Made by a program: the position numbers and the translations under genes | Shown: positions 1 through 38,135 of the stretch, piece by piece | How positions within the stretch are numbered: the first letter of the stretch is position 1 | How the letters are laid out: every line of letters starts with the position of its first letter | Notes under the pieces: model-generated | Database searches by the model: none | Seen by the model: the letters and a program-made list of their open reading frames with translations, nothing else | Told to the model about the DNA's origin: nothing | From: Bryobacterales bacterium | GTDB lineage: Bacteria; Acidobacteriota; Terriglobia; Bryobacterales; Bryobacteraceae | Length of the DNA stretch: 64,000 nt | Direction: 5' to 3' | NCBI GenBank assembly: GCA_016721425.1 | Contig: JADKID010000020.1 | Span: 20,549 to 84,548, forward strand

Positions 1-1257
<1,257 letters not shown>

Positions 1258-1347
1258 CGTGATGTTTGGGGGTTGTCTGGTTAGATAATATCGAGTTCCA
1301 CGCCGGTGCGCCGGAGTCGCATGGCTAGCGGCAGTGGGTGGAAGGGC

Positions 1348-2616: not shown

Positions 2617-2892
2617 TAGTTATGACTCCACGCGGAGGGGTCGGTGAGGTGAATGACCCGCTACCACGATCCCGTGCCCTCATTATCTACCGAAACGGCG
2701 GAAGGTAGCAATCGGATTGCAACCTGAAATAGTACTCAGGTGCCGGGGTGTCAAAATGCTGGGCGCAGGGGTAACGATTCTCATTGCGGATGCGCCGATC
2801 TTTTGTGACAGAGCAAAAACACAGCCCCGCACCCGCCGCAGCCCCTGTTGTGTGCCCCGGTTTGCCGCTGATAAGCTCAGAAACAATCTCCT

Positions 2893-4461
2893 ATGAAACA
2901 CCTCCTCCGTCTCGCCGCCTGTACCGCCGCTCTAGCCCTGCTGGCGCCGGCCCAAGAGAAAGTCGACTACGACTCCATCTATAAGATCAAGCAGGAAGCC
3001 TTCCAGAACTCCAAAGTGATGGAGCACCTGTGGTACCTCACCGAGGTTCATGGACCCCGTCTAGCCGGATCCCCCAGCTACAAAGCCTCGGCCGATTGGG
3101 CCGTCAAGACGCTAAAGGGGTGGGGCATCGAGAACGCCCAACTCGAGCCTTGGACCGGCTTCGGCCGCGGCTGGGCCAACAAGAAGTTCGTGGCCGCCAT
3201 GACCGAGCCCAACTACACCCCCCTAGTGGGCTCGCCGCAGGCCTTCACGGCCTCCACCGAAGGCGTCATCTCCGGCGAGCCCATCATCGCCGTCCTCCGC
3301 ACTGACGAGGACCTCGCCAAGTGGAAAGGCAAGCTGGCCGGCAAGATCGTGCTGACAGACGCGCCGCGCGACATCCCGCTGCACGACAAGGCCGATAACC
3401 ACCGCTACACCGAGCAGGAACTGATAGATCTCACCGTTGCCCAGATCGGCGGCGGCGGCCGCCCGATGGCAGCGCCCGGCCAGCCCCCCATCAACTTCGT
3501 GCAGATGATGGGCTTCCGCCGCAAACTCACCGAGTTCCTCCGCGAGGAGAAGGTCGGCCTCATCATCGGCGGCAGCCGCGGCGACATGGGTACCTACTTC
3601 ACCTCCAACGGCGGCAGCCGCGACGTCAAGCAGCCCCAGACACCGCCCACCATGGTGGTCAGCACCGAGCAGTACAACCGCATCTACCGTCTGATCGACA
3701 AGAAAATTCCCGTCAAGCTCGAAGTGGAAATTCAGAATCAGTGGTTCGAGCCGGACACCAATACTTTTAATGTGGTTGCCGAAATCCCCGGCACCGGCAA
3801 GCACAAGGACGAGATCGTGATGATCGGCGGCCACCTCGATAGCTGGCACGCCGGTACGGGCGCCGCCGACAACGGTACGGGTACCGCCGTGATGCTCGAA
3901 GTGATGCGCATCATCAAGAAGCTCAACCTCAAGCTCGATCGCACCGTGCGCATCGGCCTGTGGGATGCGGAAGAAGAAGGGCTGCTCGGTTCACGCGCTT
4001 ACGTGACCAAGCACTTCGCCGACCGCGCCACCATGAAGACGCTGCCCGAATGGAACAAGCTGTCGGCCTACTACAATGTCGACAACGGCGCCGGCAAAAT
4101 CCGCGGCATCTACCTGCAGGGGAATGAATCCACCCGGCCGGTCTTTGAGGCGTGGATGGCTGCATTCAAGGATCTGGGCGCCGCCACGGTGACCATCCGC
4201 AACACCAGCGGCACTGATCACCAGAGCTTCGACGCAGTGGGCTTGCCCGGCTTCCAGTTTATCCAGGACCCGCTGGAGTACGATACCCGCGTTCACCACT
4301 CCAATATGGATGTGTACGATCGCGTGCCCCGCGCGGACATGATGCAGATGTCGGCCATCGTCGCCTCGTTGGTGGTGGAGACGGCGAACCGCGAGCAGAT
4401 GCTGCCCAGGAAGCCGAAGCCCGAGCCGCGGCCGGCGGGTCAGGGCGGAATGCCGTTCTAG
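2893..4461 (+). CDS. Secreted M28-family zinc aminopeptidase (with PA-like insert)
   Basis: 522-aa ORF with the signal peptide MKHLLRLAACTAALALLAPAQE. It carries the M28 metal-ligand blocks GGHLDSWHAGTGAADNGTG and WDAEEEGLLGSRAY. Confidence 0.85.
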   Translation: MKHLLRLAACTAALALLAPAQEKVDYDSIYKIKQEAFQNSKVMEHLWYLTEVHGPRLAGSPSYKASADWAVKTLKGWGIENAQLEPWTGFGRGWANKKFVAAMTEPNYTPLVGSPQAFTASTEGVISGEPIIAVLRTDEDLAKWKGKLAGKIVLTDAPRDIPLHDKADNHRYTEQELIDLTVAQIGGGGRPMAAPGQPPINFVQMMGFRRKLTEFLREEKVGLIIGGSRGDMGTYFTSNGGSRDVKQPQTPPTMVVSTEQYNRIYRLIDKKIPVKLEVEIQNQWFEPDTNTFNVVAEIPGTGKHKDEIVMIGGHLDSWHAGTGAADNGTGTAVMLEVMRIIKKLNLKLDRTVRIGLWDAEEEGLLGSRAYVTKHFADRATMKTLPEWNKLSAYYNVDNGAGKIRGIYLQGNESTRPVFEAWMAAFKDLGAATVTIRNTSGTDHQSFDAVGLPGFQFIQDPLEYDTRVHHSNMDVYDRVPRADMMQMSAIVASLVVETANREQMLPRKPKPEPRPAGQGGMPF

Positions 4462-4490
4462 TCGGATAGCCGACCGTAGTTTAGTAAAAA

Positions 4491-4533
4491 GGCGCCATTT
4501 TCCATGCGGGAGATGGCGCCTTCTTGTGTCTTT
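4491..4533 (+). terminator. Hairpin plus T-rich tail after the M28 peptidase; first copy of the cassette repeated upstream of each RCC1 paralog
   Basis: Perfect 8-bp stem GGCGCCAT (4491..4498) / ATGGCGCC (4513..4520) with a 14-nt loop. It is preceded by AAAAA and followed by TTCTTGTGTCTTT. Confidence 0.6.
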
Positions 4534-4552
4534 GGAGGTGATTCGACATAAT
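4524..4552 (+). promoter_or_regulatory. Putative sigma70-type promoter of RCC1 paralog 1, positioned for a leaderless mRNA
   Basis: TTGTGT (4524..4529), a 17-nt spacer, then CATAAT (4547..4552). The ATG at 4560 lies 7 nt after the -10 box, and no SD sequence sits at a usable distance. The same layout is conserved upstream of paralogs 2 and 3. Confidence 0.45.
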
Positions 4553-4559
4553 CAGGCCA

Positions 4560-7500
4560 ATGACTCCGAATCTGTCCGGCCGCATTGTCCTGCCACTCTT
4601 CTTCTCGCTCGCATTGGCCGCGGCCGTTCCACTGGCGCCGCCGAAGTCGGGCACGGTCTCGGTCGGCTTCCGTCACAGCCTCTGGCTGAAGCCGGATGGC
4701 ACCGTCTGGGCCTGGGGCGCGAACTCATCGGGCCAGTTAGGCGATGGCACCTATACGCGCAGGACGGCGCCGGTCCCAGTCGTCGGGCTGACCAGCGTCG
4801 CTGCCATTGCGACCGGGGACGACTGGAGCATCGCGCTCCGCACCGACGGCACCATTTGGAGTTGGGGCGCCAACCATCACACCGCGTCGCCCTACCCCGC
4901 CTCCCTTCCCATGCCCACGCCTCTACCTTGGGGCTCCGGCGTCATCGCCATCGCTGCCAGTCCAAGCCTGAACCTGGCACTGAAGGCTGACGGCACTATA
5001 TGGCGGTGGGCCGGCACTGGGTTTCCGCTCATGACCGGGCCGGTCTGTGCCCAGGTTAGCGGCTTGATCGCCTTGGCTCAGGGGGGGATGGAGGGGGTGG
5101 GGCACTCGGTTTTTCTGCATCAAGACGGGACAGTTTGGACGAGTGGGCGTAACGCGGGCGGAGTGTTGGGCGATGGCACCACCACCGATAGGGACCAACC
5201 GGCGCCGGTGCCAGGCCTCACAGGCGTCACGGCAATTGGAGCCGGACATTCCCACACCGTGGCCCTCAAAGCTGATGGTACGGTTTGGGTTTGGGGCGGG
5301 GGTACCGCCGGGCAGTTAGGTGATGGGGCTATGAACTTGGCACGTCTGACACCCAAGATCGTTCCAGGCCTCAGCGGTATACGGCGAATCGGGGCGAGGG
5401 AGAATGGCACGTTCGCACAGGCTCTCGACGGCAGAGTCTGGGATTGGGGCACCTTTTTCTATGGCGAGTTTGGTGGCGGGATCACGCGGATGGCGCCCGT
5501 CGAGCTGCCGTCGCTGGCCGGAGCGTTTGCCATCGCGGAAGGCGTCAACCATGGCACGTTCCTGCGCCCTGACGGAGCACTCATGGCGTGGGGCAACAAC
5601 GCCGAGGGTCAGCTCGGTGCGGGCACGGCCAACATCAAGCTCTGGCCGGAAGTGGCTTCGGCAACGTCCGGCGTCGCCGCCGTGGCGGCTGGCACAAAGT
5701 ACAGCACATTCGTGAAGAACGACGGCACGGTCCTGGAATGGGGCTATACGCACAATGGAAGCATGCTGCCTGTGCCGAACCCCATGCCTGGCCTATTGAA
5801 TGTAGTTGGCACAGCCCAGGGCAGCATTCACAGCTATGCACTGAAGAGTGATGGCACCGTCTGGTCCTGGGGGAATGATTACGCCGGGTCTCTCGGCGAC
5901 GGATCCTCAACCTACCGGCCATATCCGCAAGTAATAGCCGGTCTTGCCAACATCAAAGCGATTGCGTCCGGTGACTATTTCGGTGTCGCGCTGAGCACTT
6001 CGGGTGCCGTCTGGACATGGGGCCTAAACCAACTTGGTCAACTGGGCGACGGAACTACAGCCAATCGTTGGAGCCCAGCGCCGGTGCCGGGTTTATCCGG
6101 AGTCAAGGCGATCGCCGTTGCCGGACCGAACGTGCTGGCGTTGAAGGATGATGGCACAGTGTGTGGATGGGGCCAGAACCGGTTGGGCCAACTGGGCGAT
6201 GGCACCAGCGCGATGCGCACACTGCCCGTGATGGCCTTCGGCCTGGCTAACATCACCGCAATCGCCGGCAGCGATGAGACCAGTCTCGCGCTCGGATCCG
6301 ATGGAACGGTGTGGAGTTGGGGCGGTGATCATGGCCTCGGAATTGGGTACGTTCCTGGACAGCTGACCGGCATTAGCGGCGTCCGCGCCATCTGGGCTGG
6401 ATACCAGGCCAGATTTGCACAAACAACCGATGGCACCATGTGGGCTTGGGGCTCAAATTGGTACGGTAATCTCGGTGACGGTACTGGGCTGGACTCGGCA
6501 AACCGGATTGTCCGGCTGAGCAGTCTGCCTCTCAACATCGTCTCCGTGTCGAGTTCGTCCGGTAACAACCTGGCGATCACTGCCTCCGGCCAATTGTATG
6601 CATGGGGCTATGTCCCGAGTGCCCAATGGACCCTGATCAACGTATCCTCATGGCCTCCTCAACTCGTGGCCAACACCGGCGCCTACACCCTGGGGACCAC
6701 TGAGATTTTCGCCACCACCACCGCCGGTTCTCAATCGGTGACGCTAACTACCACTACGCCCAGCCGCCCCTGGGTGGCCGCCCGTGACAGCTACTGGCTC
6801 AGTGCCACGCCCACCAACGGCGCCAACAACACTTCGCTGATCGTGAGTTGGCAGCAGAATCTGTACCCTGAGAGCCGCACCGGCACGATCCGACTCGGCG
6901 GCCAGGCCGTTACCGTCACTCAAGCCGGAACGGGAGCATCGTACAAGATTTCCGGCCATGTCCTCCTGAACGGTGCGGGTCTTCAGGGTGTTCCGATCAT
7001 GCTTTTCGGCCCCCAGAACCCCATTCAGCTGACCGACCGTGCTGGCTACTACGAATTCAAGACTCTGAGTGCGGGTGGCGCATTTGGCGTCGCGCCCATA
7101 GCACCCAACCTCCGCTTTCTACCAGTCGGTTTGGTGTTGGTCTATTTAACGGACAATCAAACCGTGGACTTCACGGCGCAGCAAAACGCCACTGGTTTTG
7201 GCGTCAGCCGCACTAGTTTAGCTTTTGCCAGCACACCGAATGGAAGCGTCGCTACGCCGCCCCAGGAGTTGACTGTCACGCTCACCGGCACGGACCCGTT
7301 GCTCTGGAACGCGACGTCCAGCAAACCCTGGCTCTCGGTTTCACCAGGGGCGGGCTCCAGCACCGGCAAGCTGACGGTCTCCCTTGTCCCCGCCGCCTTG
7401 CCGAAGTTCGGCACCGATACGGCCATTATCACGATCACCGCACCCAACCTGCCGGGCGGCACAGCCACCGTCACTTGCACCCTGACCATCGCCGGTGTCA

Positions 7501-8705
7501 CCACCGCGCCGCCCTACGGCTCCTTCGACACGCCCGGCCCGGTTCTTACCGGCCTCTCCGGCGGAGTCGCCGTCACCGGTTGGGCGCTCGACGACATCGG
7601 TGTGCAATCCGTGAAGATCTGGCGCGACCGGATCGGCTCCGAGCAGACCTATCCGAACGGGCTCGTCTACATCGGCGACGCCCTCTTTGTCCCCGGCGCC
7701 CGGCCTGACGTCGAAGCGGCGCACCCCACCCGTCCCGCCAACTACAACGCCGGTTGGGGCTACATGATGCTCTCCAACGCCCTGCCGAAGACCACACCCA
7801 GCGGCACTATGGGCAGCGGCACATATCGCCTCCACGCCATCGCCACCGATGTCGAGGGCCAATCCGCCACCATCGGCACGAAGACGATTACCGTCGATAA
7901 CAGGGGCTCCAGCAAGCCCTTCGGCGCGGTTGACGCGCCCGCGCCCGGCGCCACCATCGAAGGCGCGGCCTACCCCAACTCGGGCTGGGCGCTTACCCCG
8001 CAACCGGACATCATTCCGATCGACGGCTCCACGTTCGGCGTCTACGTAGATGGCGTCAATTTGGGAAAGCCCGTCTACAACCAGTTCCGCCCCGATGTCG
8101 CCGGGATCTTCCCGGGCCTTGCCAACAGCGCCGGGTCGGGCGGCAGCTACGTGCTGGACACGACGAAGCTCACCAACGGGATGCACTCCATCGCCTGGAG
8201 TGTGGCGGACGACCAGGGTCACATCGACGGGATCGGCAGCCGCTTCTTCCACATCCTAAACAGCGGAAGCACGGCTGCCATCGCTGCGCCAATGCCGCAG
8301 CCGAGCCCGATGCTCCGTGCCATTCGCGGAAACCGCCTCTCCGCCGAGACCGCCGGCTACCGCACAGGCTACGACGAGCAGGCCCCGCTCGTGCCGCTGC
8401 CGGCGGACGCCATTGCCGTGGCAGAACTCGAACGCATCGAACTGCACCTGCCCCCATCGCCCGAGGGCGCCATCTGGTCCGCTGCTCTACGCGTGGGCGA
8501 AGAAGTCAGACCCCTGCCCATCGGCTCGACCTTCGACCCCGAAGCTGGCGTTTTCTACTGGCAGCTTGGCCCCGGATTCCTCGGAGACTACATATTTGAG
8601 TTTCGGGCTACGCCGGATGCGAAGTCGGTGCGCGTGCGCGTCCGGGTCGGTGTGGGCGTTGATCGAGTCGAACAGAACCGCCGATCAGGGCCGGTGCCGT
8701 TCTAG
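4560..8705 (+). CDS. Giant secreted RCC1-repeat (double beta-propeller) protein with BACON-like, CarboxypepD_reg-like and unassigned beta-sandwich modules; paralog 1
   Basis: 1381-aa ORF with a hydrophobic N-terminus ([25 protein letters not shown]). I count 14 blades of the type DG[TS][12 protein letters not shown]. These are followed by [21 protein letters not shown]...[18 protein letters not shown] (BACON-like), ISGHVLLNGAGLQGVPI...TDRAGYYEFKTLSAGG (CarboxypepD_reg-like), a second BACON-like module, and two P[YF]G..D.P...GWAL...RPDV modules. Confidence 0.9.
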   Translation: MTPNLSGRIVLPLFFSLALAAAVPLAPPKSGTVSVGFRHSLWLKPDGTVWAWGANSSGQLGDGTYTRRTAPVPVVGLTSVAAIATGDDWSIALRTDGTIWSWGANHHTASPYPASLPMPTPLPWGSGVIAIAASPSLNLALKADGTIWRWAGTGFPLMTGPVCAQVSGLIALAQGGMEGVGHSVFLHQDGTVWTSGRNAGGVLGDGTTTDRDQPAPVPGLTGVTAIGAGHSHTVALKADGTVWVWGGGTAGQLGDGAMNLARLTPKIVPGLSGIRRIGARENGTFAQALDGRVWDWGTFFYGEFGGGITRMAPVELPSLAGAFAIAEGVNHGTFLRPDGALMAWGNNAEGQLGAGTANIKLWPEVASATSGVAAVAAGTKYSTFVKNDGTVLEWGYTHNGSMLPVPNPMPGLLNVVGTAQGSIHSYALKSDGTVWSWGNDYAGSLGDGSSTYRPYPQVIAGLANIKAIASGDYFGVALSTSGAVWTWGLNQLGQLGDGTTANRWSPAPVPGLSGVKAIAVAGPNVLALKDDGTVCGWGQNRLGQLGDGTSAMRTLPVMAFGLANITAIAGSDETSLALGSDGTVWSWGGDHGLGIGYVPGQLTGISGVRAIWAGYQARFAQTTDGTMWAWGSNWYGNLGDGTGLDSANRIVRLSSLPLNIVSVSSSSGNNLAITASGQLYAWGYVPSAQWTLINVSSWPPQLVANTGAYTLGTTEIFATTTAGSQSVTLTTTTPSRPWVAARDSYWLSATPTNGANNTSLIVSWQQNLYPESRTGTIRLGGQAVTVTQAGTGASYKISGHVLLNGAGLQGVPIMLFGPQNPIQLTDRAGYYEFKTLSAGGAFGVAPIAPNLRFLPVGLVLVYLTDNQTVDFTAQQNATGFGVSRTSLAFASTPNGSVATPPQELTVTLTGTDPLLWNATSSKPWLSVSPGAGSSTGKLTVSLVPAALPKFGTDTAIITITAPNLPGGTATVTCTLTIAGVTTAPPYGSFDTPGPVLTGLSGGVAVTGWALDDIGVQSVKIWRDRIGSEQTYPNGLVYIGDALFVPGARPDVEAAHPTRPANYNAGWGYMMLSNALPKTTPSGTMGSGTYRLHAIATDVEGQSATIGTKTITVDNRGSSKPFGAVDAPAPGATIEGAAYPNSGWALTPQPDIIPIDGSTFGVYVDGVNLGKPVYNQFRPDVAGIFPGLANSAGSGGSYVLDTTKLTNGMHSIAWSVADDQGHIDGIGSRFFHILNSGSTAAIAAPMPQPSPMLRAIRGNRLSAETAGYRTGYDEQAPLVPLPADAIAVAELERIELHLPPSPEGAIWSAALRVGEEVRPLPIGSTFDPEAGVFYWQLGPGFLGDYIFEFRATPDAKSVRVRVRVGVGVDRVEQNRRSGPVPF

Positions 8706-8724
8706 TCCCATGAGCAGTCATTAA

Positions 8725-8760
8725 GAAGGCGTCGCCTTTGTCACGGAAGCGGCGCCCTTC
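8725..8760 (+). terminator. Imperfect hairpin after paralog 1 (degenerate copy of the 4491 cassette)
   Basis: GAAGGCGTCGCC ... GCGGCGCCCTTC forms an imperfect stem and is followed by TTGTGT. Its position matches that of the 4491 hairpin. Confidence 0.35.
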
Positions 8761-8790
8761 TTGTGTCCGGCCTTTCAGTAACGGGATAAT
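8761..8790 (+). promoter_or_regulatory. Putative promoter of RCC1 paralog 2 (leaderless layout)
   Basis: TTGTGT (8761..8766), an 18-nt spacer, then GATAAT (8785..8790). The ATG at 8798 lies 7 nt downstream. Confidence 0.4.
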
Positions 8791-8797
8791 CAGGCCG

Positions 8798-11700
8798 ATG
8801 ACTCTGCTTTGGTCCGGCCGCCTCGCTCTGCCCCTATTCTTCTCGCTCGCCGTTGCTGCCGCGGTTCCGCTTACGCCGCCTCCGAATGGCGCAGTCGCCG
8901 TCGGTGTCCAGCACAGCCTCTGGCTGAAACCCGACGGCACCGTCTGGGCGTGGGGCGCAAACACGAACGGGCAACTGGGTGATGGTACCCTGACGCGCCG
9001 GACCGCCCCCGTCCCGGTGGTGGGGCTCACCAGCATTGCCGCCATTGCGGCGGGCAACAATTGGAGCATGGCGTTGCGTACGGACGGCACGGTGTGGAGT
9101 TGGGGCGCCGGCAAGTACTGCGGGTTTCCCTTCCTGGAGACCGTGAAGGTCCCAACCAGGCTGGACGCTCTGAATGGCGCCGTTTCCATCGGGGCCGGCT
9201 CCATGCACGGCATGGCCGTCAAGCGCGACGGCACCGTCTGGTGGTGGGGCGGCAACCAATTTGGAGCACCGTGGCCGCAAGTGCTGCCCGGCGTCGCCGA
9301 CGCCGCGGCCGTGGCCGGCGGCTGGGCCCACTCGGCTCTCCTCCGCAAGGACGGCACCGTTTGGACCTGGGGCTTCAACGAGTACGGCCAGTTGGGCGAT
9401 GGTTCGAAGGCCGCGAAATCTCTACCCATTCTCGTCCCCGGTCTCACCGGCGTCGTAGCGATAGGCGCCGGTGAATTTCACACGGTGGCACTTCAAAGCA
9501 ATGGAACGGTGTGGAGTTGGGGGCAGAATCTGAGCGCGCAGGTGGGGATTCTCTATGCGCCGGACCAACTCGCCCCGGTGCGCGTCCCAGGCATCCCAGC
9601 CATGAGAAGGATCTGGACGGGCGGCTACGGTACATCTGCCCAGACCGCTGATGGGCGCGTCTTTGAGTGGGGCGGGTACTTCTCCGGAGAACTTGGCTAC
9701 GGTTCCTTTGACGTCGCGCCCTCCGAGCTGCCCGCGCTGGCCGGATCGCTGGCGCTCGCCCGAGGCTACGGGCATGGTATGGCTCTGCGCCCGGACGGCG
9801 CACCCGTGGCCTGGGGCAATAATGCGCACGGCCAGCTTGGCGATGGCAAGGCAGTGATTCGATTCTGGCCCGGACAGGTGGCGCCCCTGGCCGGCGTTGT
9901 TTCCGCCGCGGCCGGCGAGATGCACTCGGTAGCGGTGAAGGGGGACGGCACAGTCTGGGAATGGGGCCGCAAGGAGCGCGGATTCGGCTATCCCTCCGGG
10001 CCGCCCACGTCCATACCATCGGTCGTGAACGGAATCTCCGGCGCCGCAGCAGTTGCCGAGGGCGCCTTTCACACCTACGTTTTGAAAAGTGACGGCAGCG
10101 TCTGGTCCTGGGGATTCGACTACAACAATTCCACGGGCTGCCTGGGCGATGCGACGTCGCCGTACCGGCCGAGTCCTCTGCCCATTACCGGGCTCTCCAA
10201 CATCAAGACAATCCGTTCCGGACAGTATTTCGGCGTTGCATTGACCAAGACCGGCAGTGTCTGGACCTGGGGGCAGAACAACATCGGCCAGCTCGGCGAT
10301 GGTACTACTGCCAACCGTGCGGCGCCCGCGCCGGTTCCGGGCCTCTCCGGCATCACAGAGATCGCTACCGGCACCTATTCCGCCCTGGCCTTGCGCAACG
10401 ACGGAACGGTGTGGGCTTGGGGCTCTAATTCGTTCGGCCAGCTCGGCGATGGCACGTATACGGATAGCCCTTCGCCCCGGCTGGTTTCCGGACTGAACAG
10501 TGTCGTCGCCATCGCCAACAGCGAGACCATCAACCTCGCCTTGCGCCAGGACGGTACCGTTTGGGGATGGGGCGACCGCAACGGCCATGGACTCGGGGCC
10601 AGCCCTGTTCCCGTGCAGATTCCCGGCCTCAGCGGCGTCAAGGCCATCTGGGCGGGGTACGAGTCCCGTTTCGCCCAGAAGACCGACGGCTCAATCTGGG
10701 CCTGGGGCTCGAACAGATTTGGAAACCTGGGCGATGGTACAGGACTCGACTCCTTCTCTGGCCTTGTGCGGCCCGCGAATCTGGCGGCCAATACGGCCCT
10801 GATCACGGGATCCAATTCTCACGAGCTGTCAGTGACCGCCGCTGGGGAATTGTGGGCATGGGGTTACGTCCCCAGCGCCGATTGGTGGGGGGCTGAATTC
10901 TCGACGCTTACTCCGCAGCCCGTCCTCAACACCGGCGCCTATGCCCTAGCCACCTCTGAGATCCAGGCCACCGCCGCCGCCGGTTCCCAGTCGGTGGCGC
11001 TCACCGCCACGACGCCAAGCCGCCCCTGGGTGGCCGCCCGCGACAGCTACTGGTTGAGCGCCACCCCTACCAACGGCGCCAACAACACCATGCTCTCCGT
11101 CAGTTGGCAGCAGAACCCCTACCCGGAGAGCCGCACCGGCACCATTCGGCTCGGTGGCCAGGCCGTCACCGTCACTCAGGCCGGCACCGGCCAGTCGTAC
11201 ACCATCTCCGGGACCGTCACCAATGGCCCCGGCATCCCGGTGATGCTCACCGGCCCCCAAAACATCACCACCCTGACGGGCTCCGCCGGCCACTATCAAT
11301 TCCCAACCCTCGCCGCCGGTGGCGCCTTCGCTGTCACGCCCATCGCCCCCAACCTGGGGATCTCCCCGCCCAGCCGGGTGGTGAATTCCCTCTCCGCCAA
11401 CCAGACCTTCGACTTTGCTGCCTCTCAGAACGCTGTCAGCCTCGCCGTCGATCGCTCCGCACTCTATTTCGCCGGCAACGCGAACGGCTCCGTCGTCTCG
11501 CCGCCCCAGGAGCTCAGCGTCACCCTCACCGGCGTCTCGCCCCTTCTCTGGCTCGCAACCTCTAGCAAGCCGTGGCTATCCGTCACCGGCGCTGGCTCTT
11601 CCACCGGCAAGCTGACGGTCTCCCTTGTCCCCGCCGCCTTGCCGAAGTTCGGCACCGATACGGCCATTATCACGATCACCGCACCCAACCTGCCGGGCGG

Positions 11701-12915
11701 CACAGCCACCGTCACTTGCACCCTGACCATCGCCGGTGTCACCACCGCGCCGCCCTACGGCTCCTTCGACACGCCCGGCAAGATTCTCACCGGCCTCTCC
11801 GGCGGCATCGCCGTCACCGGTTGGGCGCTCGATGACCTCGGTGTCCAATCCGTGAAGATCTGGCGCGATCGCATCGGTTCGGAGCAGACCTATCCCAACG
11901 GGCTCGTCTACATCGGGGACGCCCTCTTTGTCCCCGGCGCCCGCCCCGACGTCGAAGCGGCTCACCCCACCCGCCCAGCCAACTACGGTGCGGGTTGGGG
12001 CTACATGATGCTCTCCAACGCCCTGCCGAAGACGACGCCCAGCGGCACCATGGGCAGCGGCACCTACCGCCTCCACGCCATTGCCACCGATGTCGAGGGC
12101 CAGTCCGCCACTATCGGCACGAAGACGATTACCGTCGATAACAGGGGCTCCAGCAAGCCTTTCGGCGCGGTTGACGCGCCCGCGCCCGGCGCCACCATCG
12201 AAGGCGCGGCCTACCCCAACTCGGGCTGGGCGCTCACCCCGCAGCCGGACCTCATCCCGATCGACGGCTCCACGTTCGGCGTCTATGTGGATGGCGTTAA
12301 TTTGGGCAAACCCGTCTACAACCAATTCCGCCCTGATGTCGCCGGGATCTTCCGGGCCTAGCCAACAGCGCCGGCTCCGGCGGCAGCTATGTGCTGGATA
12401 CGACGAAGCTCTCCAACGGGATGCACTCCATCGCCTGGAGCGTGGCCGACGACAAGGGCCACATCGACGGGATCGGCAGCCGCTTCTTCCACATCCTGAA
12501 CAGCGGAAGCACCGCCGCCATCGCATCGCCGATGCCGCAGCCGAGCCCGATGCTGCGCGCCATTCGCAGACACCGCCTCTCCGCCGAGACCGCCGGCTAC
12601 CGCACGGGCTACGACGCGGAGGCCCCGCTCGTGCCGCTGCCCGCGGACGCCATCACAGTGGCAGAACTGGAACGCCTCGAACTCCACCTGCCTGCAATGG
12701 CGGAGGGGGCAAACTGGTCCGCCGCACTCCGCGTTGGCGACGAGCTCAGAACTCTCCCCATCGGTTCCACGTGCGACGCCGAAGCCTGCATCTTCTACTG
12801 GCAACTCGGCCCGGGATTCCTGGGAGAGTTCGTGCTCGAATTCCGCCCGGCCCCCGACGCGGAGCCACTCCCGGTTCGCATCCGCGTGGGAGCGGGCGTG
12901 GCGCGAGTCGAGTAG
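8798..12915 (+). pseudogene. RCC1-repeat giant protein, paralog 2, interrupted by a 1-nt deletion near 12352
   Basis: The ORF-track pieces 8738..12361 and 12391..12915 are colinear with paralogs 1 and 3. I chose the start at 8798 ([25 protein letters not shown]) by conservation with the other two copies. Paralogs 1 and 3 read atcttcCCCgggcct (IFPGLA), whereas this copy reads atcttcCCgggccTAG (IFRA*). The downstream frame continues ANSAGSGGSYVLDTTKLSNGMHSIAW... Confidence 0.85.
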
Positions 12916-12981
12916 AACGCCGGCAAAACGACCCGGTTTCGCTAATAATGCGCCATTTTCCGTGTGGGAGTCGGCGCCTTA

Positions 12982-13010
12982 TTGTGTGATGGCAGGGAAT
13001 TCGACATAAT
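12982..13010 (+). promoter_or_regulatory. Putative promoter of RCC1 paralog 3 (leaderless layout)
   Basis: TTGTGT (12982..12987), a 17-nt spacer, then CATAAT (13005..13010). The ATG at 13018 lies 7 nt downstream. A weakened copy of the hairpin (GCGCC...GGCGC, 12950..12977) precedes it. Confidence 0.4.
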
Positions 13011-13017
13011 CAGACCG

Positions 13018-16000
13018 ATGACTCCGAATTGCGCCGGCTGCATTCTCCTGCCTGTCCTCTTCTCCTTCGCGCTGGGCGCGGCCCCGCTCACGCCGCCGCC
13101 GGAGGGTGCGGTCGCCGTGGGCGCTCAACACAGCCTCTGGCTCAAGCCCGACGGCTCCGTTTGGGCCTGGGGTGCGAACTTTGCAGGACAACTCGGCGAC
13201 GGCTCCTACCTCCGAAGGACCGCACCCGTCCCCGTTGTTGAGCTCAGCAGCATTGTCGCCATTGTCGCGGGTGATCACTGGAGCATGGCTCTCCGCTCGG
13301 ACGGTACGGTTTGGAGCTGGGGCTCCCACAACATGGCTGACTATCGTTCGCCGGGCTGGAAAGGCACTCCCAGTTTGCTATTTTCGCTACCCGGAACCAT
13401 TGCCGTTGCGGGAAATCCAACCTCAGGCAGAGCGATAACCGGCGACGGGCTCGTTTGGGAGTGGGCCGGTGATGGGACCGGACGCGCCACACTGCGACAG
13501 TTGACGGGAGTCAGCGAAATGGCAGCCGTCGTCAGCGGGACTGGGCACTTCGTTCTACTTCGCAGAGATGGCACAGTCTGGACTTCGGGTTCCAACCTCA
13601 GCGGGCAGTTGGGCGATGGCACCACCACGACAAGAAGCGAACTGATTCAGGTGCCGGGCCTGGCTGGCATCGCGGCTGTGGCTGCTGGACGGTCCCACAC
13701 GGTTGCGCTGAAGGCCGACGGCAGCGTTTTAGCCTGGGGTGATGGCCGTCTTTACCAGATAGGTGACGGTATCTGGGCCAACCACACTTCGCCGGTGCAG
13801 ATTGCGGGGCTGGCGCAGATTCAGCGTATCGTGGCTGGCGGAGACGGGACGGTAGCGGTCGAAACTGGCGGGCGGGTTTGGCAATGGGGTCAGGCCGCAT
13901 ACGGAGAGTTCAGTCGCGGAGGTTTCCGCCAGACGCCCACAGAGCAGCCCCAGCTCAATGGGATCAAGGCGCTCGCAATCGGTACGTCTCATTGCCTGGC
14001 CCTTGGCGTGGACGGCGCACCAGTGTCGTGGGGCAACAATGCGAACGGCCAGCTTGGTACTGGCTCCGCCATCATCCGCCTCTGGCCCGAACTCACTCCA
14101 GTGATCTCCGGCGTCGTATCAGCCGCGCCGGGCTTGATGCACAGCATGGTGGTGAAGAACGACGGCACGCTCTGGGAATGGGGCGACAGGAACTATGCCT
14201 ATTCCTTTGCACTTGGCGCGCCGGCGTCCGTTCCGTCGCAGGTGGCGGGGATATCCAATGTCGTCCTCGCCGCCGAGGGGGCGGGCCACAGCTACGCGCT
14301 CACCTCCGACGGCACGGTCTGGAGTTGGGGAGGAGACCCGCAGAACCTGGGCGTGCTGGGGCAAGGGCCTGCCATTCGAACCCTGTCCTCTCCGCAGCCT
14401 ATCGCCGGCCTGTCCGGCATCAAGTCGATCCTGTCCGGTCCCTACTTCGGGGCGGCGTTGAGCGATTCCGGAGAGGTGTGGACTTGGGGACAAAACCTGT
14501 ACGGTCAGCTCGGCGATGGTACGCTGACCAATCGGGATGCTCCCGTGCGTGTGCCCGGACTCCAGGGCGTCAAGGCCATCGCCTCCGGCAAGTATCATAT
14601 GCTCGCCCTTCTTGACGACGGAACGGTTTGGTCCTGGGGTTCCAACGGGAACCGGCGACTGGGCGACGGCACAACAACTTCCCGCGCAACACCGGGAAAG
14701 GTCCCCGTCGTGTCGGGCATCACGGCCATCGCTACCAGTGATATCGCTGGCCTCGCTCTGAAGTCCGACGGTACCGTCTGGGGCTGGGGAGGCGACTTCA
14801 GAGATTTCAGTGCCGCCCCTGGCCTCTTTCCCGCGCAAGTTCCTGGTCTGACCGGTATCCGTTCGATTTGGGCGGGTGATGGGGTGCGTTTCGTTCAGAG
14901 GGCCGACAATTCCGTTTGGGTTTGGGGGGCGAGCTCCTATGGAAATCTGGGGGATTCCAGCGGCTCGCTCTTTCAGTACGACCCGCCTGTCCGGGTAGCG
15001 AACCTCCCCGCTGATGTGACTTCGATCTCCGGCTTACTCGGTCACACTCTGGCGGTCACCAGCGCAGGGGAGTTGTGGTCCTGGGGCTACGTCCCCAGCG
15101 CCCAAATGTCGGACGCTGGGGATCTGGCGCCGGCGCCGCAACTTGTGGCGAACTCCGGCTCCTATGCGCTCAGCTCCTCCGAGATCGTGGCCTCATCCGC
15201 CGCCGGCTCGCAATCCGTGTCCCTCTCCACCGGCAACGACGTTCTTCCCTGGGCCGCGGTTCCGGATAGCGCTTGGCTGAGCGCCACGCCCGGCGCCGGG
15301 AATGGCAGCGCCACGCTCACCCTCAATTGGCCGCAGAACCAACGCCCCGAGAGCCGGATCGCGACGATCCGCGTCGGTGGCGAGGCGGTGATAGTGACTC
15401 AGGCCGGAACAGGACCCACCTACTCGATTTCCGGCACTGTCCGCGCCAATGGTGCCGGCGTACCTGGAGTTGCTGTCACGCTCAGCGCTTCACTGGACTT
15501 CGCCTCATCTCAGCCGAGCTCTAGAATCAGTAAACTGACCGACTCCTCCGGCCATTACGAGTTCACTACGCTCACCGCTGGCGGAAGTTTCTACGTGACA
15601 CCCATCGCCAACACCTTGAGGTTCACGCCGGATAGCGCAAGCGCGGGGCCTCTCGCGGCCAACCAAATCTTGGACTTCACGGTTTTCCAGGAGCCTACAA
15701 CGCTGGCTGTCGATCGCACCAGTCTCCAATTCGCCAGTAACCAGGGCCGGTCCATCGTCACACCGCCCCAGGAACTTACCGTCAGACTGACCGGCGGCGC
15801 CCCTCTGGTTTGGAACGCGGTCTCCAGCAAGCCCTGGCTCACCGTCACCCCCTCTACCGGGTCCGCCAGTGGCAAAGCGCTGGTCTCCCTGGTATCTTCG
15901 AACCTGCCCAAGACCGGCGCCGACAGCGCAACCATCACGATCACTACCCCAAACCTTCCCAACGGGGCTGTTACGGTGAAATGCACCCTGACCATCGCCG

Positions 16001-17181
16001 GCGCCGCCACCGCGCCGCCCTACGGCTCCTTCGACACGCCCGGCAAGATTATCACCGGCCTCTCCGGCGGCATCGCCGTCACCGGTTGGGCGCTCGATGA
16101 CCTCGGTGTCCAATCCGTGAAGATCTGGCGCGATCGCATCGGTTCGGAGCAGACCTATCCCAACGGGCTCGTCTACATCGGGGACGCCCTCTTTGTCCCC
16201 GGCGCCCGCCCCGACGTCGAAGCGGCTCACCCCACCCGCCCCGCCAACTACACAGCCGGTTGGGGCTACATGATGCTCTCCAACGCCCTGCCGAAGATGA
16301 CGCCCAGCGGCACCATGGGCAGCGGCACCTACCGCCTCCACGCCATTGCCACCGATGTCGAGGGCCAGTCCGCCACTATCGGCACGAAGACGATTACCGT
16401 CGATAACAGGGGCTCCAGCAAGCCCTTCGGCGCGGTGGATGCGCCCGCGCCAGGCGCCACCATCGAAGGCGCGGCCTACCCCAACTCGGGCTGGGCGCTC
16501 ACCCCGCAGCCGGACCTCATCCCGATCGACGGCTCCACGTTCGGCGTCTACGTAGATGGCGTCAATTTGGGAAAGCCCGTCTACAACCAATTCCGCCCTG
16601 ATGTCGCCGGGATCTTCCCGGGCCTAGCCAACAGCGCCGGCTCCGGCGGCAGCTATGTGCTGGATACGACGAAGCTCTCCAACGGGATGCACTCCATCGC
16701 CTGGAGCGTGGCCGACGACAAGGGTCACATCGACGGGATCGGCAGCCGCTTCTTCCACATCCTAAACAGCGGAAGCACGGCTGCCATCGCTGCGCCAATG
16801 CCGCAGCCGAGCCCGATGCTGCGGGCCATTCGCAGACACCGCCTCTCCGCCGAGACCGCCGGCTACCGCACGGGCTACGACGCGGAGGCCCCGCTCGTGC
16901 CGCTGCCCGCGGACGCCATCACAGTGGCAGAACTTGAACGCCTCGAGCTGCACCTGCCGCCAGCGCCCGAGGGCGCCATCTGGTCCGCCGCACTCCGCGT
17001 CGGCGAGGAGCTCAGACCTCTCCCAATCGGCTCCACCTTCGACGCCGAAGCCTGCATCTTCTACTGGCAACTCGGCCCGGGATTCCTGGGAGAGTTCGCA
17101 CTAGAATTCCGCTCGGCCCCGGACTCCGCTCCGCTCCCGGTTCGCATCCGCGTCGCCGCCTGGACGTCCCGAACGCAGTAA
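13018..17181 (+). CDS. RCC1-repeat giant protein, paralog 3
   Basis: The ORF track gives 12964..17181. I prefer the start at 13018 (MTPNCAGCILLPVLFSFALGAAPL), which aligns with the starts of paralogs 1 and 2. The module order is the same as in paralog 1, and the C-terminal ~450 aa are nearly identical to paralogs 1 and 2. Confidence 0.9.
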   Translation: MTPNCAGCILLPVLFSFALGAAPLTPPPEGAVAVGAQHSLWLKPDGSVWAWGANFAGQLGDGSYLRRTAPVPVVELSSIVAIVAGDHWSMALRSDGTVWSWGSHNMADYRSPGWKGTPSLLFSLPGTIAVAGNPTSGRAITGDGLVWEWAGDGTGRATLRQLTGVSEMAAVVSGTGHFVLLRRDGTVWTSGSNLSGQLGDGTTTTRSELIQVPGLAGIAAVAAGRSHTVALKADGSVLAWGDGRLYQIGDGIWANHTSPVQIAGLAQIQRIVAGGDGTVAVETGGRVWQWGQAAYGEFSRGGFRQTPTEQPQLNGIKALAIGTSHCLALGVDGAPVSWGNNANGQLGTGSAIIRLWPELTPVISGVVSAAPGLMHSMVVKNDGTLWEWGDRNYAYSFALGAPASVPSQVAGISNVVLAAEGAGHSYALTSDGTVWSWGGDPQNLGVLGQGPAIRTLSSPQPIAGLSGIKSILSGPYFGAALSDSGEVWTWGQNLYGQLGDGTLTNRDAPVRVPGLQGVKAIASGKYHMLALLDDGTVWSWGSNGNRRLGDGTTTSRATPGKVPVVSGITAIATSDIAGLALKSDGTVWGWGGDFRDFSAAPGLFPAQVPGLTGIRSIWAGDGVRFVQRADNSVWVWGASSYGNLGDSSGSLFQYDPPVRVANLPADVTSISGLLGHTLAVTSAGELWSWGYVPSAQMSDAGDLAPAPQLVANSGSYALSSSEIVASSAAGSQSVSLSTGNDVLPWAAVPDSAWLSATPGAGNGSATLTLNWPQNQRPESRIATIRVGGEAVIVTQAGTGPTYSISGTVRANGAGVPGVAVTLSASLDFASSQPSSRISKLTDSSGHYEFTTLTAGGSFYVTPIANTLRFTPDSASAGPLAANQILDFTVFQEPTTLAVDRTSLQFASNQGRSIVTPPQELTVRLTGGAPLVWNAVSSKPWLTVTPSTGSASGKALVSLVSSNLPKTGADSATITITTPNLPNGAVTVKCTLTIAGAATAPPYGSFDTPGKIITGLSGGIAVTGWALDDLGVQSVKIWRDRIGSEQTYPNGLVYIGDALFVPGARPDVEAAHPTRPANYTAGWGYMMLSNALPKMTPSGTMGSGTYRLHAIATDVEGQSATIGTKTITVDNRGSSKPFGAVDAPAPGATIEGAAYPNSGWALTPQPDLIPIDGSTFGVYVDGVNLGKPVYNQFRPDVAGIFPGLANSAGSGGSYVLDTTKLSNGMHSIAWSVADDKGHIDGIGSRFFHILNSGSTAAIAAPMPQPSPMLRAIRRHRLSAETAGYRTGYDAEAPLVPLPADAITVAELERLELHLPPAPEGAIWSAALRVGEELRPLPIGSTFDAEACIFYWQLGPGFLGEFALEFRSAPDSAPLPVRIRVAAWTSRTQ

Positions 17182-17186
17182 ACTCG

Positions 17187-17642
17187 ATGGCAATGGAGAA
17201 AGAGGTGCTCGAATTCACGGCCCAGTACTTCGGAGTGAATTCGGAAAGCCTCTCGCTCCGGACTCGTCCCTATCCGGATCTCTGCCTGGATGACACCCGC
17301 ATGGAGGCATTTCTCTGGCGCTTCAGCCAGCATTTCGGCGTGTCCTTTCCAAAGCTCAATAACCGCCAATCGGTGGCGTATCTGGCGCGTCTGGCCCTTG
17401 GTTCCAGAGTAGGCGCGCTTTTTGGGTGCCGACCGCGCCTGGCCTTGGGCTCAGTGGCGGCGGCAGCTTCCGGAACTCCGACGTCACCCGCCTCAGCCCC
17501 TGGCTCACCCTCGCCGACCTCACCCGGGCCGCTACCCGCGCGGCGCCCCGTCCAGGATTGTCCGGTACACCGTCTCATACCGCGGAATAATCTTCGACGT
17601 GCAGAAACGCGTCTCCGCCGTCTCCCGCGCCGCCCAGCGTAG
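17187..17642 (+). CDS. Hypothetical small protein; only the first ~60 aa look protein-like
   Basis: 151-aa ORF starting 6 nt after paralog 3. The N-terminus is MAMEKEVLEFTAQYFGVNSESLSLRTRPYPDLCLDDTRMEAFLWRFSQHFGVSFPKL, and the remainder is low-complexity Pro/Ala/Arg. There is no SD sequence. The last ~110 nt overlap the convergent GT4 gene. Confidence 0.3.
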   Translation: MAMEKEVLEFTAQYFGVNSESLSLRTRPYPDLCLDDTRMEAFLWRFSQHFGVSFPKLNNRQSVAYLARLALGSRVGALFGCRPRLALGSVAAAASGTPTSPASAPGSPSPTSPGPLPARRPVQDCPVHRLIPRNNLRRAETRLRRLPRRPA

Positions 17643-18647
17643 CCGGTTCCGCAGCGCCCCGTCCGTCAGGATCTCCAGCACCCGCTTGGCCTGCGAAGCC
17701 ACGTCGCCCACCTCTTCCAGGTAGCCGTCCTGGCCGTGCGTGATCAACTCCGGCACGCCGCCTACGCGCGTCGCCACCGGGATCACGCCGCACGCCATCG
17801 CCTCCAGCGCCGCCAGGCCGAAAGACTCCATCCGGCTCGGCAGCAGGAGCACGTCCGCCTGCGGGATTAGCTTCTCAATGTGATTCTGCTTGCCCAGGAA
17901 CTTCACGTGATCGTGCACGCCCAGTTCAAACGCCAGCCGCTCCGCCGCGCTCTGGTCCGGCCCATCGCCGGCCATCCACAACTCACAATCCACGTGCTTC
18001 CGCACCCGCTCCAGGATCTGCACGCAATCCGTCACACGCTTCACTTCCCGGAAGTTCGAGATGTGCAGCAGCCGCGGCCGCCCCTCGTGCGGCTCCTTCG
18101 CCATGCGGTAGAGATCGCAGTTCACGAAGTTGTGCACCACGTGAATCGGGTTCTGCACGCCAAACACCTCCACCGTCTGCTGCCGCAGATTCTCGCTGAT
18201 GGAGGTCACTCCATCGGACTGCTCAATCGAGAACTTCGTGATCGGGAAATACGCCCGGTCCGTCCCCACCAGCGTGATGTCCGTTCCGTGCAGAGTCGTG
18301 ATGTAGGGCAGACGCCGCTTGCCCGCCAGCATCGCCCGCGCCATGTAGGCCGACGCCGAATGAGGGATCGCATAGTGGACGTGCAGCAGATCCAGATCCT
18401 GCCACTCGGCGATCTCCGCCATCCGCGACGCCAGCGCCAGATCGTAGGGCGGGTACTGGAATAGCGGGTAGTTGGAGACCTCCACCTCGTGGTAGTAGAT
18501 CCGCGGCGTGCCTGGATCCAGACGGATCGGATTGGCGTAGGTGATGAAGTGGATCTCGTGACCGCGCGCCGCCAACTCCATGCCGAGCTCCGTGGCGACA
18601 ATGCCCGATCCGCCGTAAGTGGGATAGCACGTGATGCCGATTCGCAT
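17532..18647 (-). CDS. bshA: GT4-family glycosyltransferase, BshA-like (N-acetyl-alpha-D-glucosaminyl L-malate synthase candidate)
   Basis: 371 aa. From memory, the N-terminus MRIGITCYPTYGGSGIVATELGMELAARGHEIHFITY closely resembles Bacillus BshA (MKIGITCYPSVGGSG...). A GT-B C-terminal block LPSRMESFGLAALEAMACGVIP is present. Confidence 0.7.
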   Translation of the reverse strand: MRIGITCYPTYGGSGIVATELGMELAARGHEIHFITYANPIRLDPGTPRIYYHEVEVSNYPLFQYPPYDLALASRMAEIAEWQDLDLLHVHYAIPHSASAYMARAMLAGKRRLPYITTLHGTDITLVGTDRAYFPITKFSIEQSDGVTSISENLRQQTVEVFGVQNPIHVVHNFVNCDLYRMAKEPHEGRPRLLHISNFREVKRVTDCVQILERVRKHVDCELWMAGDGPDQSAAERLAFELGVHDHVKFLGKQNHIEKLIPQADVLLLPSRMESFGLAALEAMACGVIPVATRVGGVPELITHGQDGYLEEVGDVASQAKRVLEILTDGALRNRLRWAARETAETRFCTSKIIPRYETVYRTILDGAPRG

Positions 18648-18651
18648 AGTC

Positions 18652-23262: not shown

Positions 23263-23401
23263 CGTCTGCGTCCATTCTACCCGAGAATATCGCCCAGTCT
23301 TCGCATTAAGATTACGTAGGCCGCTGATTTTGTTATACAATCTGCCTTCGGCCTACTGTTTGCATCGCAGTTTTGGTGATAGAGTAGGTCTGTAGGACTT
23401 C

Positions 23402-38130: not shown

Positions 38131-38135
38131 CGAAT

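Follow-up and report, generated by a model that had tools for sequence, protein, structure and literature searches.

A tandem array of three genes for giant, putatively secreted proteins with RCC1-type beta-propeller heads occupies positions 4560 to 17181 of a 64,000-nucleotide stretch of DNA (referred to as the window) from a Bryobacterales bacterium of the phylum Acidobacteriota (assembly GCA_016721425.1, contig JADKID010000020.1, positions 20,549 to 84,548 of the forward strand). The best overall explanation of the array, to which a probability of about 55% is assigned, is a lineage-specific, recombining tandem family of Sec-exported, non-enzymatic binding proteins that share one chassis. 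The evolutionary anatomy in this reading is held with high confidence; the functional part is tentative and falls somewhat short of even odds.

The open reading frames (ORFs), the translations and a tblastn search with copy 1, which finds exactly three copies in the window, confirm the core of the original prediction, a note made from the DNA letters alone: three tandem paralogues of ~4.1 kb, one of them frameshifted, with no other gene interleaved. The three genes and the N-terminus of the first are as follows, with lengths in amino acids (aa).

4560-8705, + strand: copy 1, head type A; 1381 aa, intact, identical to P0123 (IPP47_19395)
8798-12915, + strand: copy 2, head type B; one 1-bp deletion, truncated product is P0127 (IPP47_19400)
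13018-17181, + strand: copy 3, head type C; 1387 aa from the conserved ATG, intact, identical to P0121 (IPP47_19410)
4560-4625, + strand: signal-peptide-like N-terminus of copy 1; 22 residues in the translation, followed by VP

The matching database entries are hypothetical proteins of a Bryobacterales metagenome-assembled genome (MAG). By tblastn, copy 1 shares 66.6% aa identity with copy 2 over aa 1-1184 and 62.8% with copy 3, and the genes are separated by spacers of 93-103 nt, each with its own hairpin variant. Copy 2 is split into ORFs 8738..12361 and 12391..12915 because one C has been lost from a CCC run after base 12351 (copies 1 and 3 read TCTTCCCGGG, copy 2 reads TCTT-CCGGG); past the deletion its frame is otherwise open to the normal stop at 12915. 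The gene may have been inactivated recently, or the missing C may be a sequencing error in the homopolymer. The signal-like N-termini described earlier are visible in the translations: that of copy 1, whose cleavage site is placed by rule from the translation, has an arginine in the n-region, a hydrophobic core and an A-A-A motif, and fits a type I signal peptide.

Divergence between the copies is distributed unevenly along the genes. DNA identity is 45-65% over the 5' ~3 kb and 90-99% over the last ~1.1 kb, with tails that are 93-95% identical overall and up to 100% identical in 120-nt windows. Both DNA identity and synonymous-site divergence (pS) along the gene establish that the contrast between head and stalk noted originally is real and that divergence is not uniform, although the boundaries have to be redrawn. 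The near-identical part covers ~350-385 codons and not the last ~700 aa, since the final 45-80 codons diverge again (68-79% aa identity between copies) and the 240-aa stalk ahead of it, made of BACON, CarboxypepD_reg (CPD)-like and BACON_2 domains, is mosaic (77% aa identity between copies 1 and 2; 57-58% between copy 3 and either). At the other end, aa 1-120 are moderately conserved at 61-71%, less than had been claimed for the first ~100 aa, and the divergent region extends over blades 3-14 of the propellers instead of blades ~2-9. The following blocks carry the marks of homogenization.

7347-8501, + strand: gene-converted block of copy 1; 92.8% identical to copy 2 (1104 nt) and 92.6% to copy 3 (1035 nt)
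11588-12861, + strand: gene-converted block of copy 2; 95.1% identical to copy 3 over 1155 nt
15973-17127, + strand: gene-converted block of copy 3; 95.1% identical to copy 2 (1155 nt) and 92.6% to copy 1 (1035 nt)

Within these blocks lie identical runs of 178 nt between copies 1 and 2 (copy 1 positions 7361-7538, P=0.0002), 190 nt between copies 2 and 3 (copy 2 positions 11787-11976, P=0.0014) and 100 nt between copies 1 and 3 (P=0.03). The runs are embedded in ~5-7% tail divergence and indicate several independent conversion tracts; elsewhere the tails differ between copies at 57-79 patchy, copy-specific positions. Other proteins with the same C-terminal module in the same genomes have tails that are only ~50-56% identical, which shows that the homogenization is local to the array.

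The array lies in a slot within a conserved gene order: ClpX, an M28 peptidase, the slot, a small ORF, a GT4 glycosyltransferase, a glycoside hydrolase (GH)-like protein, a HisKA_3 kinase, a methyltransferase and a BNR protein. The same neighbourhood is found in L001, a Paludibaculum MAG, and in L004, a second assembly, each with a single slot gene. Three features border the slot in the window.

2893-4461, + strand: M28 peptidase gene, upstream anchor outside the array; Pfam Peptidase_M28, 4.2e-35
17187-17420, + strand: small ORF 6 nt past the copy 3 stop; 74% aa identity with L001 at the corresponding position (80 aa)
17532-18647, - strand: GT4 glycosyltransferase gene, downstream anchor outside the array; Pfam assignment, 99% aa identity to L001

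The flank genes provide a baseline for divergence. They share 92-100% aa identity with L001 at a pS of 0.20-0.30 (96% and 0.26 for the M28 peptidase) and show a pS of 0.39-0.56 to L004 (90% and 0.44 for the M28 peptidase), while their nonsynonymous divergence (pN) of 0.00-0.12 is far below the 0.30-0.33 of the heads. Measured in this way the slot gene appears as an island of extreme divergence, and genomes with nearly identical flanks carry different head types. Copy number, which the original prediction had proposed to compare among relatives, also varies: L001 and L004 have one gene each, and a third relative, L110, has none after its M28 gene. In L110 (metagenome contig Ga0105047_10379709, bases 525-1416) the M28 gene has 86-88% DNA identity and is directly followed by unrelated sequence, with neither an RCC1 gene nor the upstream hairpin described below, and the slot can be empty or rearranged in this relative. 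The metagenome scan with the M28 peptidase otherwise returns mostly distant relatives without RCC1 genes, and only L110 is informative. Amid conserved synteny the slot is hypervariable, and the array is lineage-specific, with a single copy in relatives.

The small ORF after copy 3 is possibly a real lineage-specific gene. It is absent in L004 and has no Pfam match even at E<=10, and its 3' limit is uncertain in that a T5 run in the window and a T6 run in L001 shift the frame of its hydrophobic C-terminus. With the copy 2 frameshift, this run makes two homopolymer discrepancies within 5 kb. Beside the slot, a gene at 21367-23340 (- strand) encodes a BNR/Sortilin-like repeat protein of 631-657 aa that is conserved in L001 (93% aa) and L004 (83% aa) and is another gene of the secreted-propeller type near the slot.

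The heads themselves are old lineages. Copy 2 aligns to the single gene of L004 at 73-87% DNA identity across aa 80-786, and its head (aa 1-735) has 75% aa identity and a pS of 0.44, which equals the flank baseline and marks the L004 gene as a vertical orthologue of the copy 2 head. The copy 3 head is closest to L006/P0122, a gene in a different genomic context (68-85% DNA, 73% aa). Heads B and C share only 52-56% aa identity within the array; since both are closer to genes in other genomes than to each other, they do not stem from a recent triplication with fast divergence. For head A the relation to an outside gene is less clear: its nearest relative, in L001, has only 65% aa identity and a pS of 0.62, far above the 0.2-0.3 baseline. 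The single gene of L001 is mosaic, with a head like that of copy 1, a segment at aa 786-818 that is 96% identical in DNA to copy 2 (80-89% on to aa 937) and a last 45 codons that are 94% identical to copy 3. Such a gene is to be expected where unequal crossing-over between shared segments lets arrays grow and shrink. Thus one part of the earlier view stands, namely that segments are exchangeable, as the pieces in L001 indicate; a recent diversification of the heads in place does not.

A rival account combines recent triplication in place with fast diversifying selection on the propellers, while purifying selection keeps the tail constant. It would yield the identity contrast between head and tail, the high pN of the heads relative to the flank genes and the single copy in relatives, and is nevertheless hardly credible. 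Between copies the heads show a saturated pS of 0.63-0.67, against 0.10-0.23 for the tails (pN 0.01-0.03), and a contrast at synonymous sites within one gene cannot be explained by selection on the protein. The tail is also less conserved between species than head B, with only 65-67% aa identity to L004 (pN 0.21-0.23, pS 0.53) against 75%, and it is no more constrained than the head. The same account has to face the baseline pS between the copy 2 head and L004, the closeness of heads B and C to outside genes (head A being only modestly closer to L001) and the long identical runs inside ~7% divergence, which indicate conversion tracts. The near-identity of the tails is the result of gene conversion and not of stronger constraint. 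The description of a diversified head on a homogenized tail accordingly holds up on both the identical runs and the tail pS. In the dN/dS comparison by domain, the heads of different copies give no estimate because their synonymous sites are saturated.

It also has to be considered whether the array is an artefact in which metagenome assembly concatenated strain variants or duplicated one gene of a genome that is truly single-copy. The contig comes from a MAG, L001 and L004 are single-copy, tails of ~1.1 kb with 93-95% identity and local stretches of up to 100% could mislead an assembler, and two homopolymer-length frame problems within 5 kb show that the consensus is not error-free. However, heads that differ by 35-55% in DNA over 3 kb are no duplicated collapse, and the patchy, copy-specific differences among the tails speak against one duplicated sequence. 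Each junction is bracketed by unique sequence within ~350 nt, consisting of the diverged last 45-80 codons, a spacer with its hairpin variant and a diverged 5' end. No junction of tail and hairpin exists in the single-copy genomes, where the tail leads into the small ORF and GT4. Tandem arrays of genes with the same module recur, moreover, in 14 other loci from unrelated assemblies. An artefact of this kind is extremely improbable.

Each copy in the recombining family is preceded by a unit of conserved layout, consisting of a hairpin and promoter-like boxes directly ahead of the start codon.

4489-4522, + strand: GC-rich, terminator-like 15-bp hairpin upstream of copy 1; terminator-like match and shared consensus fold
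4524-4552, + strand: promoter-like boxes of copy 1; TTGTGT, 17 nt, CATAAT, 7 nt, ATG
8726-8758, + strand: hairpin upstream of copy 2; shared consensus fold
8761-8790, + strand: promoter-like boxes of copy 2; TTGTGT, 18 nt, GATAAT, 7 nt, ATG
12947-12980, + strand: hairpin upstream of copy 3; shared consensus fold
12982-13010, + strand: promoter-like boxes of copy 3; TTGTGT, 17 nt, CATAAT, 7 nt, ATG

The pattern TTGTGT-N17/18-(C/G)ATAAT-N7-ATG occurs three times in the window against 0 expected by chance. A hairpin followed by TTGYGT-N17/18-(C/G)ATAAT-N7-ATG is also present in L001 (~9925-10000), L004 (~9895-9960, with ATA where the other copies and orthologues have the start ATG) and L006 (~3258-3323), in the last case without any co-directional upstream gene. 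Neither the sequence behind the M28 gene of L110 nor the upstream regions of other members of the module family contain the unit, and its retention in orthologues with absence elsewhere ties it to this RCC1 gene. The promoter-like reading is based on this conservation and not on a sigma-70 consensus scan, which does not call the conserved boxes and finds no enrichment (2 found, 1.8 expected). A search of positions 1-20000 with Rfam gives no credible RNA family for the hairpin, which shows weak covariation (2 compensatory pairs out of 15). A terminator-like stem and a promoter of its own are probable for each copy, in keeping with the promoter-like box per copy that had been noticed at the outset. 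No Shine-Dalgarno sequence lies ahead of the array gene starts and the -10-like box ends 7 nt before the ATG, so that a leaderless mRNA is possible.

These units bear on another interpretation, in which the array is a set of cassettes for antigenic or phase variation, with one or two copies expressed, copy 2 as a silent donor, CCC/CC slippage as the switch and conversion as the means of shuffling segments. All three copies keep the promoter-like unit and a signal peptide, unlike promoterless silent cassettes; known contingency tracts are much longer than three C, and the second homopolymer discrepancy nearby suggests a simple sequencing error. Conversion is detected in the tail and not in the variable head, and no recombinase or invertase is adjacent to the array. 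The cassette interpretation is very improbable on these grounds, even though it would account for a homopolymer frameshift with an otherwise intact downstream frame, for the presence of conversion tracts and mosaic genes and for the hypervariability of the locus between close relatives.

The binding role proposed for the tandem family starts from the domain composition of the proteins, given here for copy 1.

4647-6689, + strand: head of 14 RCC1 blades, predicted as two 7-bladed propellers; Pfam, blade count, AlphaFold2 (AF2) and Foldseek
6768-6926, + strand: BACON domain (PF13004, aa 737-789, 25.0 bits)
6948-7184, + strand: CarboxypepD_reg-like beta-sandwich, approximate limits from alignment to the copy 3 region
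7203-7481, + strand: BACON_2 domain (PF19190, aa 882-974, 38.7 bits)
7512-8648, + strand: C-terminal module, modelled as three beta-sandwich domains (aa ~985-1113, 1121-1232 and 1266-1363)

Each copy has 14 blades, which in copy 1 comprise 13 found by motif search and a degenerate one near aa 189. The array proteins match WD40_RLD in Pfam at E = 5.7e-114 and 9.3e-123, and the repeat profiles score far above their curated cut-offs: PF25390 at 381.6 and 410.6 bits (cut-off 150), PF00415 (RCC1) at ~220 bits (cut-off 21.7) and PF13540 (RCC1_2) at 189 and 220 bits (cut-off 22). The AF2 model of the head (aa 1-747) has a predicted local distance difference test score (pLDDT) of 81 and a predicted TM-score (pTM) of 0.76. 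Foldseek matches this model to UVR8, the RCC1-like domains (RLDs) of HERC2 and RCC1 at E 1e-22 to 1e-29, the best structural match being HERC2 RLD1 (TMt 0.74). Since each match is to a single RCC1-like domain of ~340-360 aa and spans half of the head, the head is predicted to consist of two 7-bladed RCC1-like propellers, as had been proposed from the blade count. Repeat profiles above the curated cut-offs and a seven-bladed fold together place the heads in the RCC1-like beta-propeller superfamily.

In the stalk, BACON scores 25.0 bits in copy 1, exactly at its cut-off of 25, and 31.4 bits in copy 3, and BACON_2 scores 38.7 and 53.8 bits (cut-off 25), which establishes membership in both families and bears out the BACON and second BACON-like modules of the first annotation. 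The CarboxypepD_reg-like module fares less well. A match to CarboxypepD_reg (PF13620) is found only in copy 3 (aa 803-861) at 24.5 bits, below the cut-off of 32.3, and SdrD_B reaches 21.5 bits against a cut-off of 29.7; the segment does not qualify as a member of that family, and a beta-sandwich of this general kind is plausible.

The presence of BACON and BACON_2 suggests a rival function, glycan capture, in which BACON domains and propellers bind polysaccharides and the three copies serve three substrates in the manner of the surface glycan-binding proteins of polysaccharide utilization loci. One NCBI record names an orthologue 'BACON domain-containing carbohydrate-binding protein', and the window holds genes for GT4, a GH32/43/130-like protein, a sulfatase, UxuA and ThuA-like proteins. 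The neighbouring GT4, GH and kinase genes, however, lie on the opposite strand and are conserved whether one or three copies are present, so that they do not co-vary with the array, and no transporter or regulator is coupled to it. Replacement of head lineages between genomes with 92-100% identical flanks is more typical of conflict proteins than of substrate binders. We know of no demonstration of a sugar-binding role for BACON, and in one solved enzyme the domain reportedly acts as a spacer. Glycan capture is a distinctly unlikely function for the array.

The C-terminal module is the part of the shared chassis that has no counterpart in the reference collections. Searches with the final ~400 aa in Pfam, NCBIfam, PHROGs and PADLOC, and in PDB sequences by both single sequence and profile, give no match. 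The AF2 model of the module shows three beta-sandwich domains (pLDDT 87, pTM 0.86), in agreement with the two ~130-aa copies and final ~120-aa domain originally described. Known C-terminal sorting signals, namely the C-terminal domain (CTD) of the type IX secretion system (T9SS), PEP-CTERM, LPXTG, GlyGly-CTERM, dockerin and SLH, have no Pfam or NCBIfam match in the array proteins, which end shortly past the last beta-sandwich without a hydrophobic helix. All three copies contain the motifs KPFGxIDTP, GWALT, YRxDIA, DGIGSRYF and FYWQPGPGF, together with a longer motif that opens with PFGxx (22 further letters).

These motifs define a new family (alignment A2), a ~380-aa unit at the extreme C-terminus whose motif set is found in all three copies. 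The view of the tail as a constant stalk private to the array has to be given up, since a very large family has this C-terminal module in common. With the module alone as query, 1234 matches are found among the candidates scored, at 45-56% identity and with varied N-terminal domains, and species-representative genomes contain at least 573 module loci by pattern scan. Among the loci listed, Bryobacterales and Aminicenantes carry several to a dozen module genes per genome, and some loci are in MAGs labelled Omnitrophota, Deltaproteobacteria, Deferrimicrobium and Clostridia/Eubacteriales. Searched against 1.84 billion cluster representatives, a profile of the module matches 6711 at E<=1e-3, 4201 at E<=1e-10 and 2431 at E<=1e-30. 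The module always comes last: the protein ends 23-75 aa (median 32) past the final motif, and the C-terminal position is confirmed in 96 members. Signal-peptide-like N-termini are present in 78 of 90 full-length module proteins. Among the 45 members scanned for domains, BACON_2 precedes the module in 25, other heads include NHL, SBBP, BNR/Sortilin, LVIVD, FG-GAP, LRR, He_PIG, DUF11 and fn3, and an enzyme domain is found in only one. Judged by these sequence features, the module is the signature of thousands of secreted proteins, mainly from Acidobacteriota, with propellers, solenoids and immunoglobulin arrays of many kinds as their heads.

Of 78 loci, 14 hold two or three module genes in tandem on the same strand, some with tails 86-92% identical, and local homogenization of tails may be a general habit of the family. 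The tandem pairs in L031, L034, L035 and L051 (Aminicenantes, Bryobacterales and Paludibaculum MAGs) have tails at 86-92% DNA identity and an upstream 1.5 kb at background identity. Five proteins (P0241, P0242, P0268, P0342 and P0343) have 4-9 internal matches to the module profile, the best-scoring stretch spanning positions ~6-300 or else the full module, so that a portion of it can double as an internal repeat.

From these parts the following mechanism is proposed for the recombining family. Its chassis consists of a signal peptide, two 7-bladed propellers, an immunoglobulin (Ig)-like spacer of BACON, CarboxypepD_reg-like and BACON_2 domains and the ~380-aa module of three beta-sandwiches. 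The propellers would serve as variable recognition heads, the BACON and CPD-like domains as spacers and the module as a shared device for display, anchoring, sorting or assembly of interchangeable heads, a role suggested by positional analogy with the T9SS and dockerin domains of RCC1-head proteins elsewhere. RCC1-like propellers are protein-binding scaffolds in known cases. With one tail, a cell would in this way display three distinct binding specificities. Transcription of each copy would start at its own promoter-like unit, possibly giving a leaderless message. The tails are kept alike by repeated gene-conversion tracts, exchange reaches other segments as well and yields mosaic genes, and unequal crossing-over in the shared tails can change the number of copies. 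The replacement of one head type by another where the flanks are nearly identical suggests that the proteins face conflict or niche differences, such as those involving phage, predators, neighbours or particles.

Several observations weigh against this proposal. The location, the ligand and the role of the module are putative, and Foldseek searches of PDB and BFVD return only generic Ig and fibronectin type III (FN3) arrays for the module. The module is rich in invariant polar residues (R, D, N, H, Y and S) and could equally be a ligand-binding or catalytic unit and not an anchor. No conserved partner gene, such as a sortase-like or secretion component, is found near the 78 module loci, which weakens the case for a dedicated sorting pathway; in that search, made by ORF calling and all-against-all BLAST clustering of the neighbours, the best cluster, an ABC ATPase, occurs at only 8 loci. 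Where head dN/dS is measurable, between copy 2 and L004, it is below 1 at ~0.2-0.4, a value that does not demonstrate diversifying selection on the heads. With only four non-self close relatives of the orthogroup in the databases searched, the population-level view is thin, and assembly across ~1.1-kb near-identical tails could in principle have scrambled the order of the heads relative to the 3' ends.

A bolder reading, which is unlikely, takes the module as the mark of cargo for an undescribed route of display, anchoring or secretion in Acidobacteriota (Bryobacterales and Aminicenantes) and some other phyla. Every cargo gene would carry the same ~1.1-kb 3' block, and the module would for that reason act as a recombination handle too. 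If this is true, whole heads are duplicated, deleted and swapped at hot spots like the array, and the module proteins form a modular, rapidly re-assortable repertoire of extracellular recognition proteins.

Other kinds of variable locus were considered and rejected. A target of a diversity-generating retroelement is not supported: the window contains no template/variable repeat pair, the repeats found being the paralogous genes themselves, head divergence is spread over 3 kb with saturated synonymous sites, and no reverse transcriptase is found among the window genes scanned, which do not cover every ORF. In a polymorphic toxin or contact-dependent inhibition locus the arrangement would differ, as here the C-terminus is constant, the N-terminal head varies and there are no toxin domains; a toxin/immunity pairing is likewise rejected, the small ORF after copy 3 having no family match and being absent in L004. 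A prophage reading of the array was rejected, and copies 1 and 3 have no PADLOC match to anti-phage defence systems.

Elsewhere in the window, genes of the outer-membrane efflux protein (OEP), HlyD-like and ABC_membrane families lie in a row at 38136-42571 (- strand) and form an exporter cluster ~21 kb from the array; nothing links this cluster to the RCC1 proteins, which have Sec signals. Direct repeats of 82-153 nt at 36799-38132 (72-81% identical, at spacings of 396-397 and 896 nt) trace back to a degenerate second copy of the 3' end of the gene at 37264-38130, which encodes a signal-peptide-bearing, glycine-rich protein ending ...THPIELEDKEVEFA...KLAL. A 300-nt direct repeat with 75% identity (45251-45550 and 46065-46364) corresponds to two adjacent paralogous genes at 45190-45981 and 45983-46795.

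Neither RCC1-repeat proteins of bacteria nor BACON domains nor the concerted evolution of surface-protein paralogues is new, and database records name the relatives 'RCC1 family protein' or 'BACON domain-containing protein'. Literature and library searches found no description of the module family, of its pairing with swappable propeller heads or of this recombining slot. The finding alone reveals no new mechanism, and we infer the functions of head and module. Its value is as a quantified example of tail gene conversion, old head lineages and copy-number change inside conserved synteny, which shows how one large secreted protein family of Acidobacteriota evolves. Acidobacteriota are among the most abundant bacteria of soil and sludge, and to our knowledge almost nothing is known of their cell surface. 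New sorting systems have been discovered before by way of conserved domains that are always C-terminal, which makes the module a concrete, testable target.

The array proteins can be compared with four groups of known systems. RCC1, the HERC2 RLDs, UVR8 and RPGR share the repeat family and fold of the heads. These proteins are intracellular and eukaryotic with one propeller per functional unit, whereas the array proteins have two tandem propellers, a bacterial signal peptide, fused Ig-like domains and the C-terminal module. Closer in setting is BLIP-II of Streptomyces, a secreted bacterial RCC1-type propeller that binds protein. RCC1-repeat effectors of Legionella and predicted-extracellular RCC1 giants of Oscillospiraceae have also been described (bioRxiv 10.1101/2023.11.21.568195). 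In all three an RCC1-type propeller acts outside the producer's cytoplasm as a protein-binding scaffold. The array proteins have no sequence-level orthology to them and differ in export (type IV secretion in Legionella), and the known proteins lack the BACON_2 domain with the triple beta-sandwich C-terminus, the tandem array and the conversion pattern.

The layout of a Sec signal, a variable head, Ig-like spacers and a conserved last domain resembles that of T9SS CTD, dockerin and PEP-CTERM cargo. Among RCC1-head proteins, P0154 and P0158 from Bacteroidia end in a T9SS domain (PF18962) and the clostridial P0214 carries a dockerin (PF00404). The T9SS domain shares a beta-sandwich fold with the array module. 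The analogy is one of position only, as the array module has ~380 aa in three domains against 70-100 aa for known sorting domains, and unlike PEP-CTERM and similar signals it has no terminal transmembrane segment or PEP motif and no conserved partner gene nearby.

In evolutionary pattern the nearest parallels are babA/babB of Helicobacter, opa of Neisseria and msp2 of Anaplasma, surface-protein families that undergo concerted evolution and segmental gene conversion. The array resembles them in its conserved ends, variable part, conversion tracts, mosaics and differences in copy number. Those families belong to host-associated pathogens with demonstrated antigenic variation, whereas the array comes from an environmental acidobacterium of soil or sludge. 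It also differs from them in that conversion affects the constant tail and that the heads are whole double propellers.

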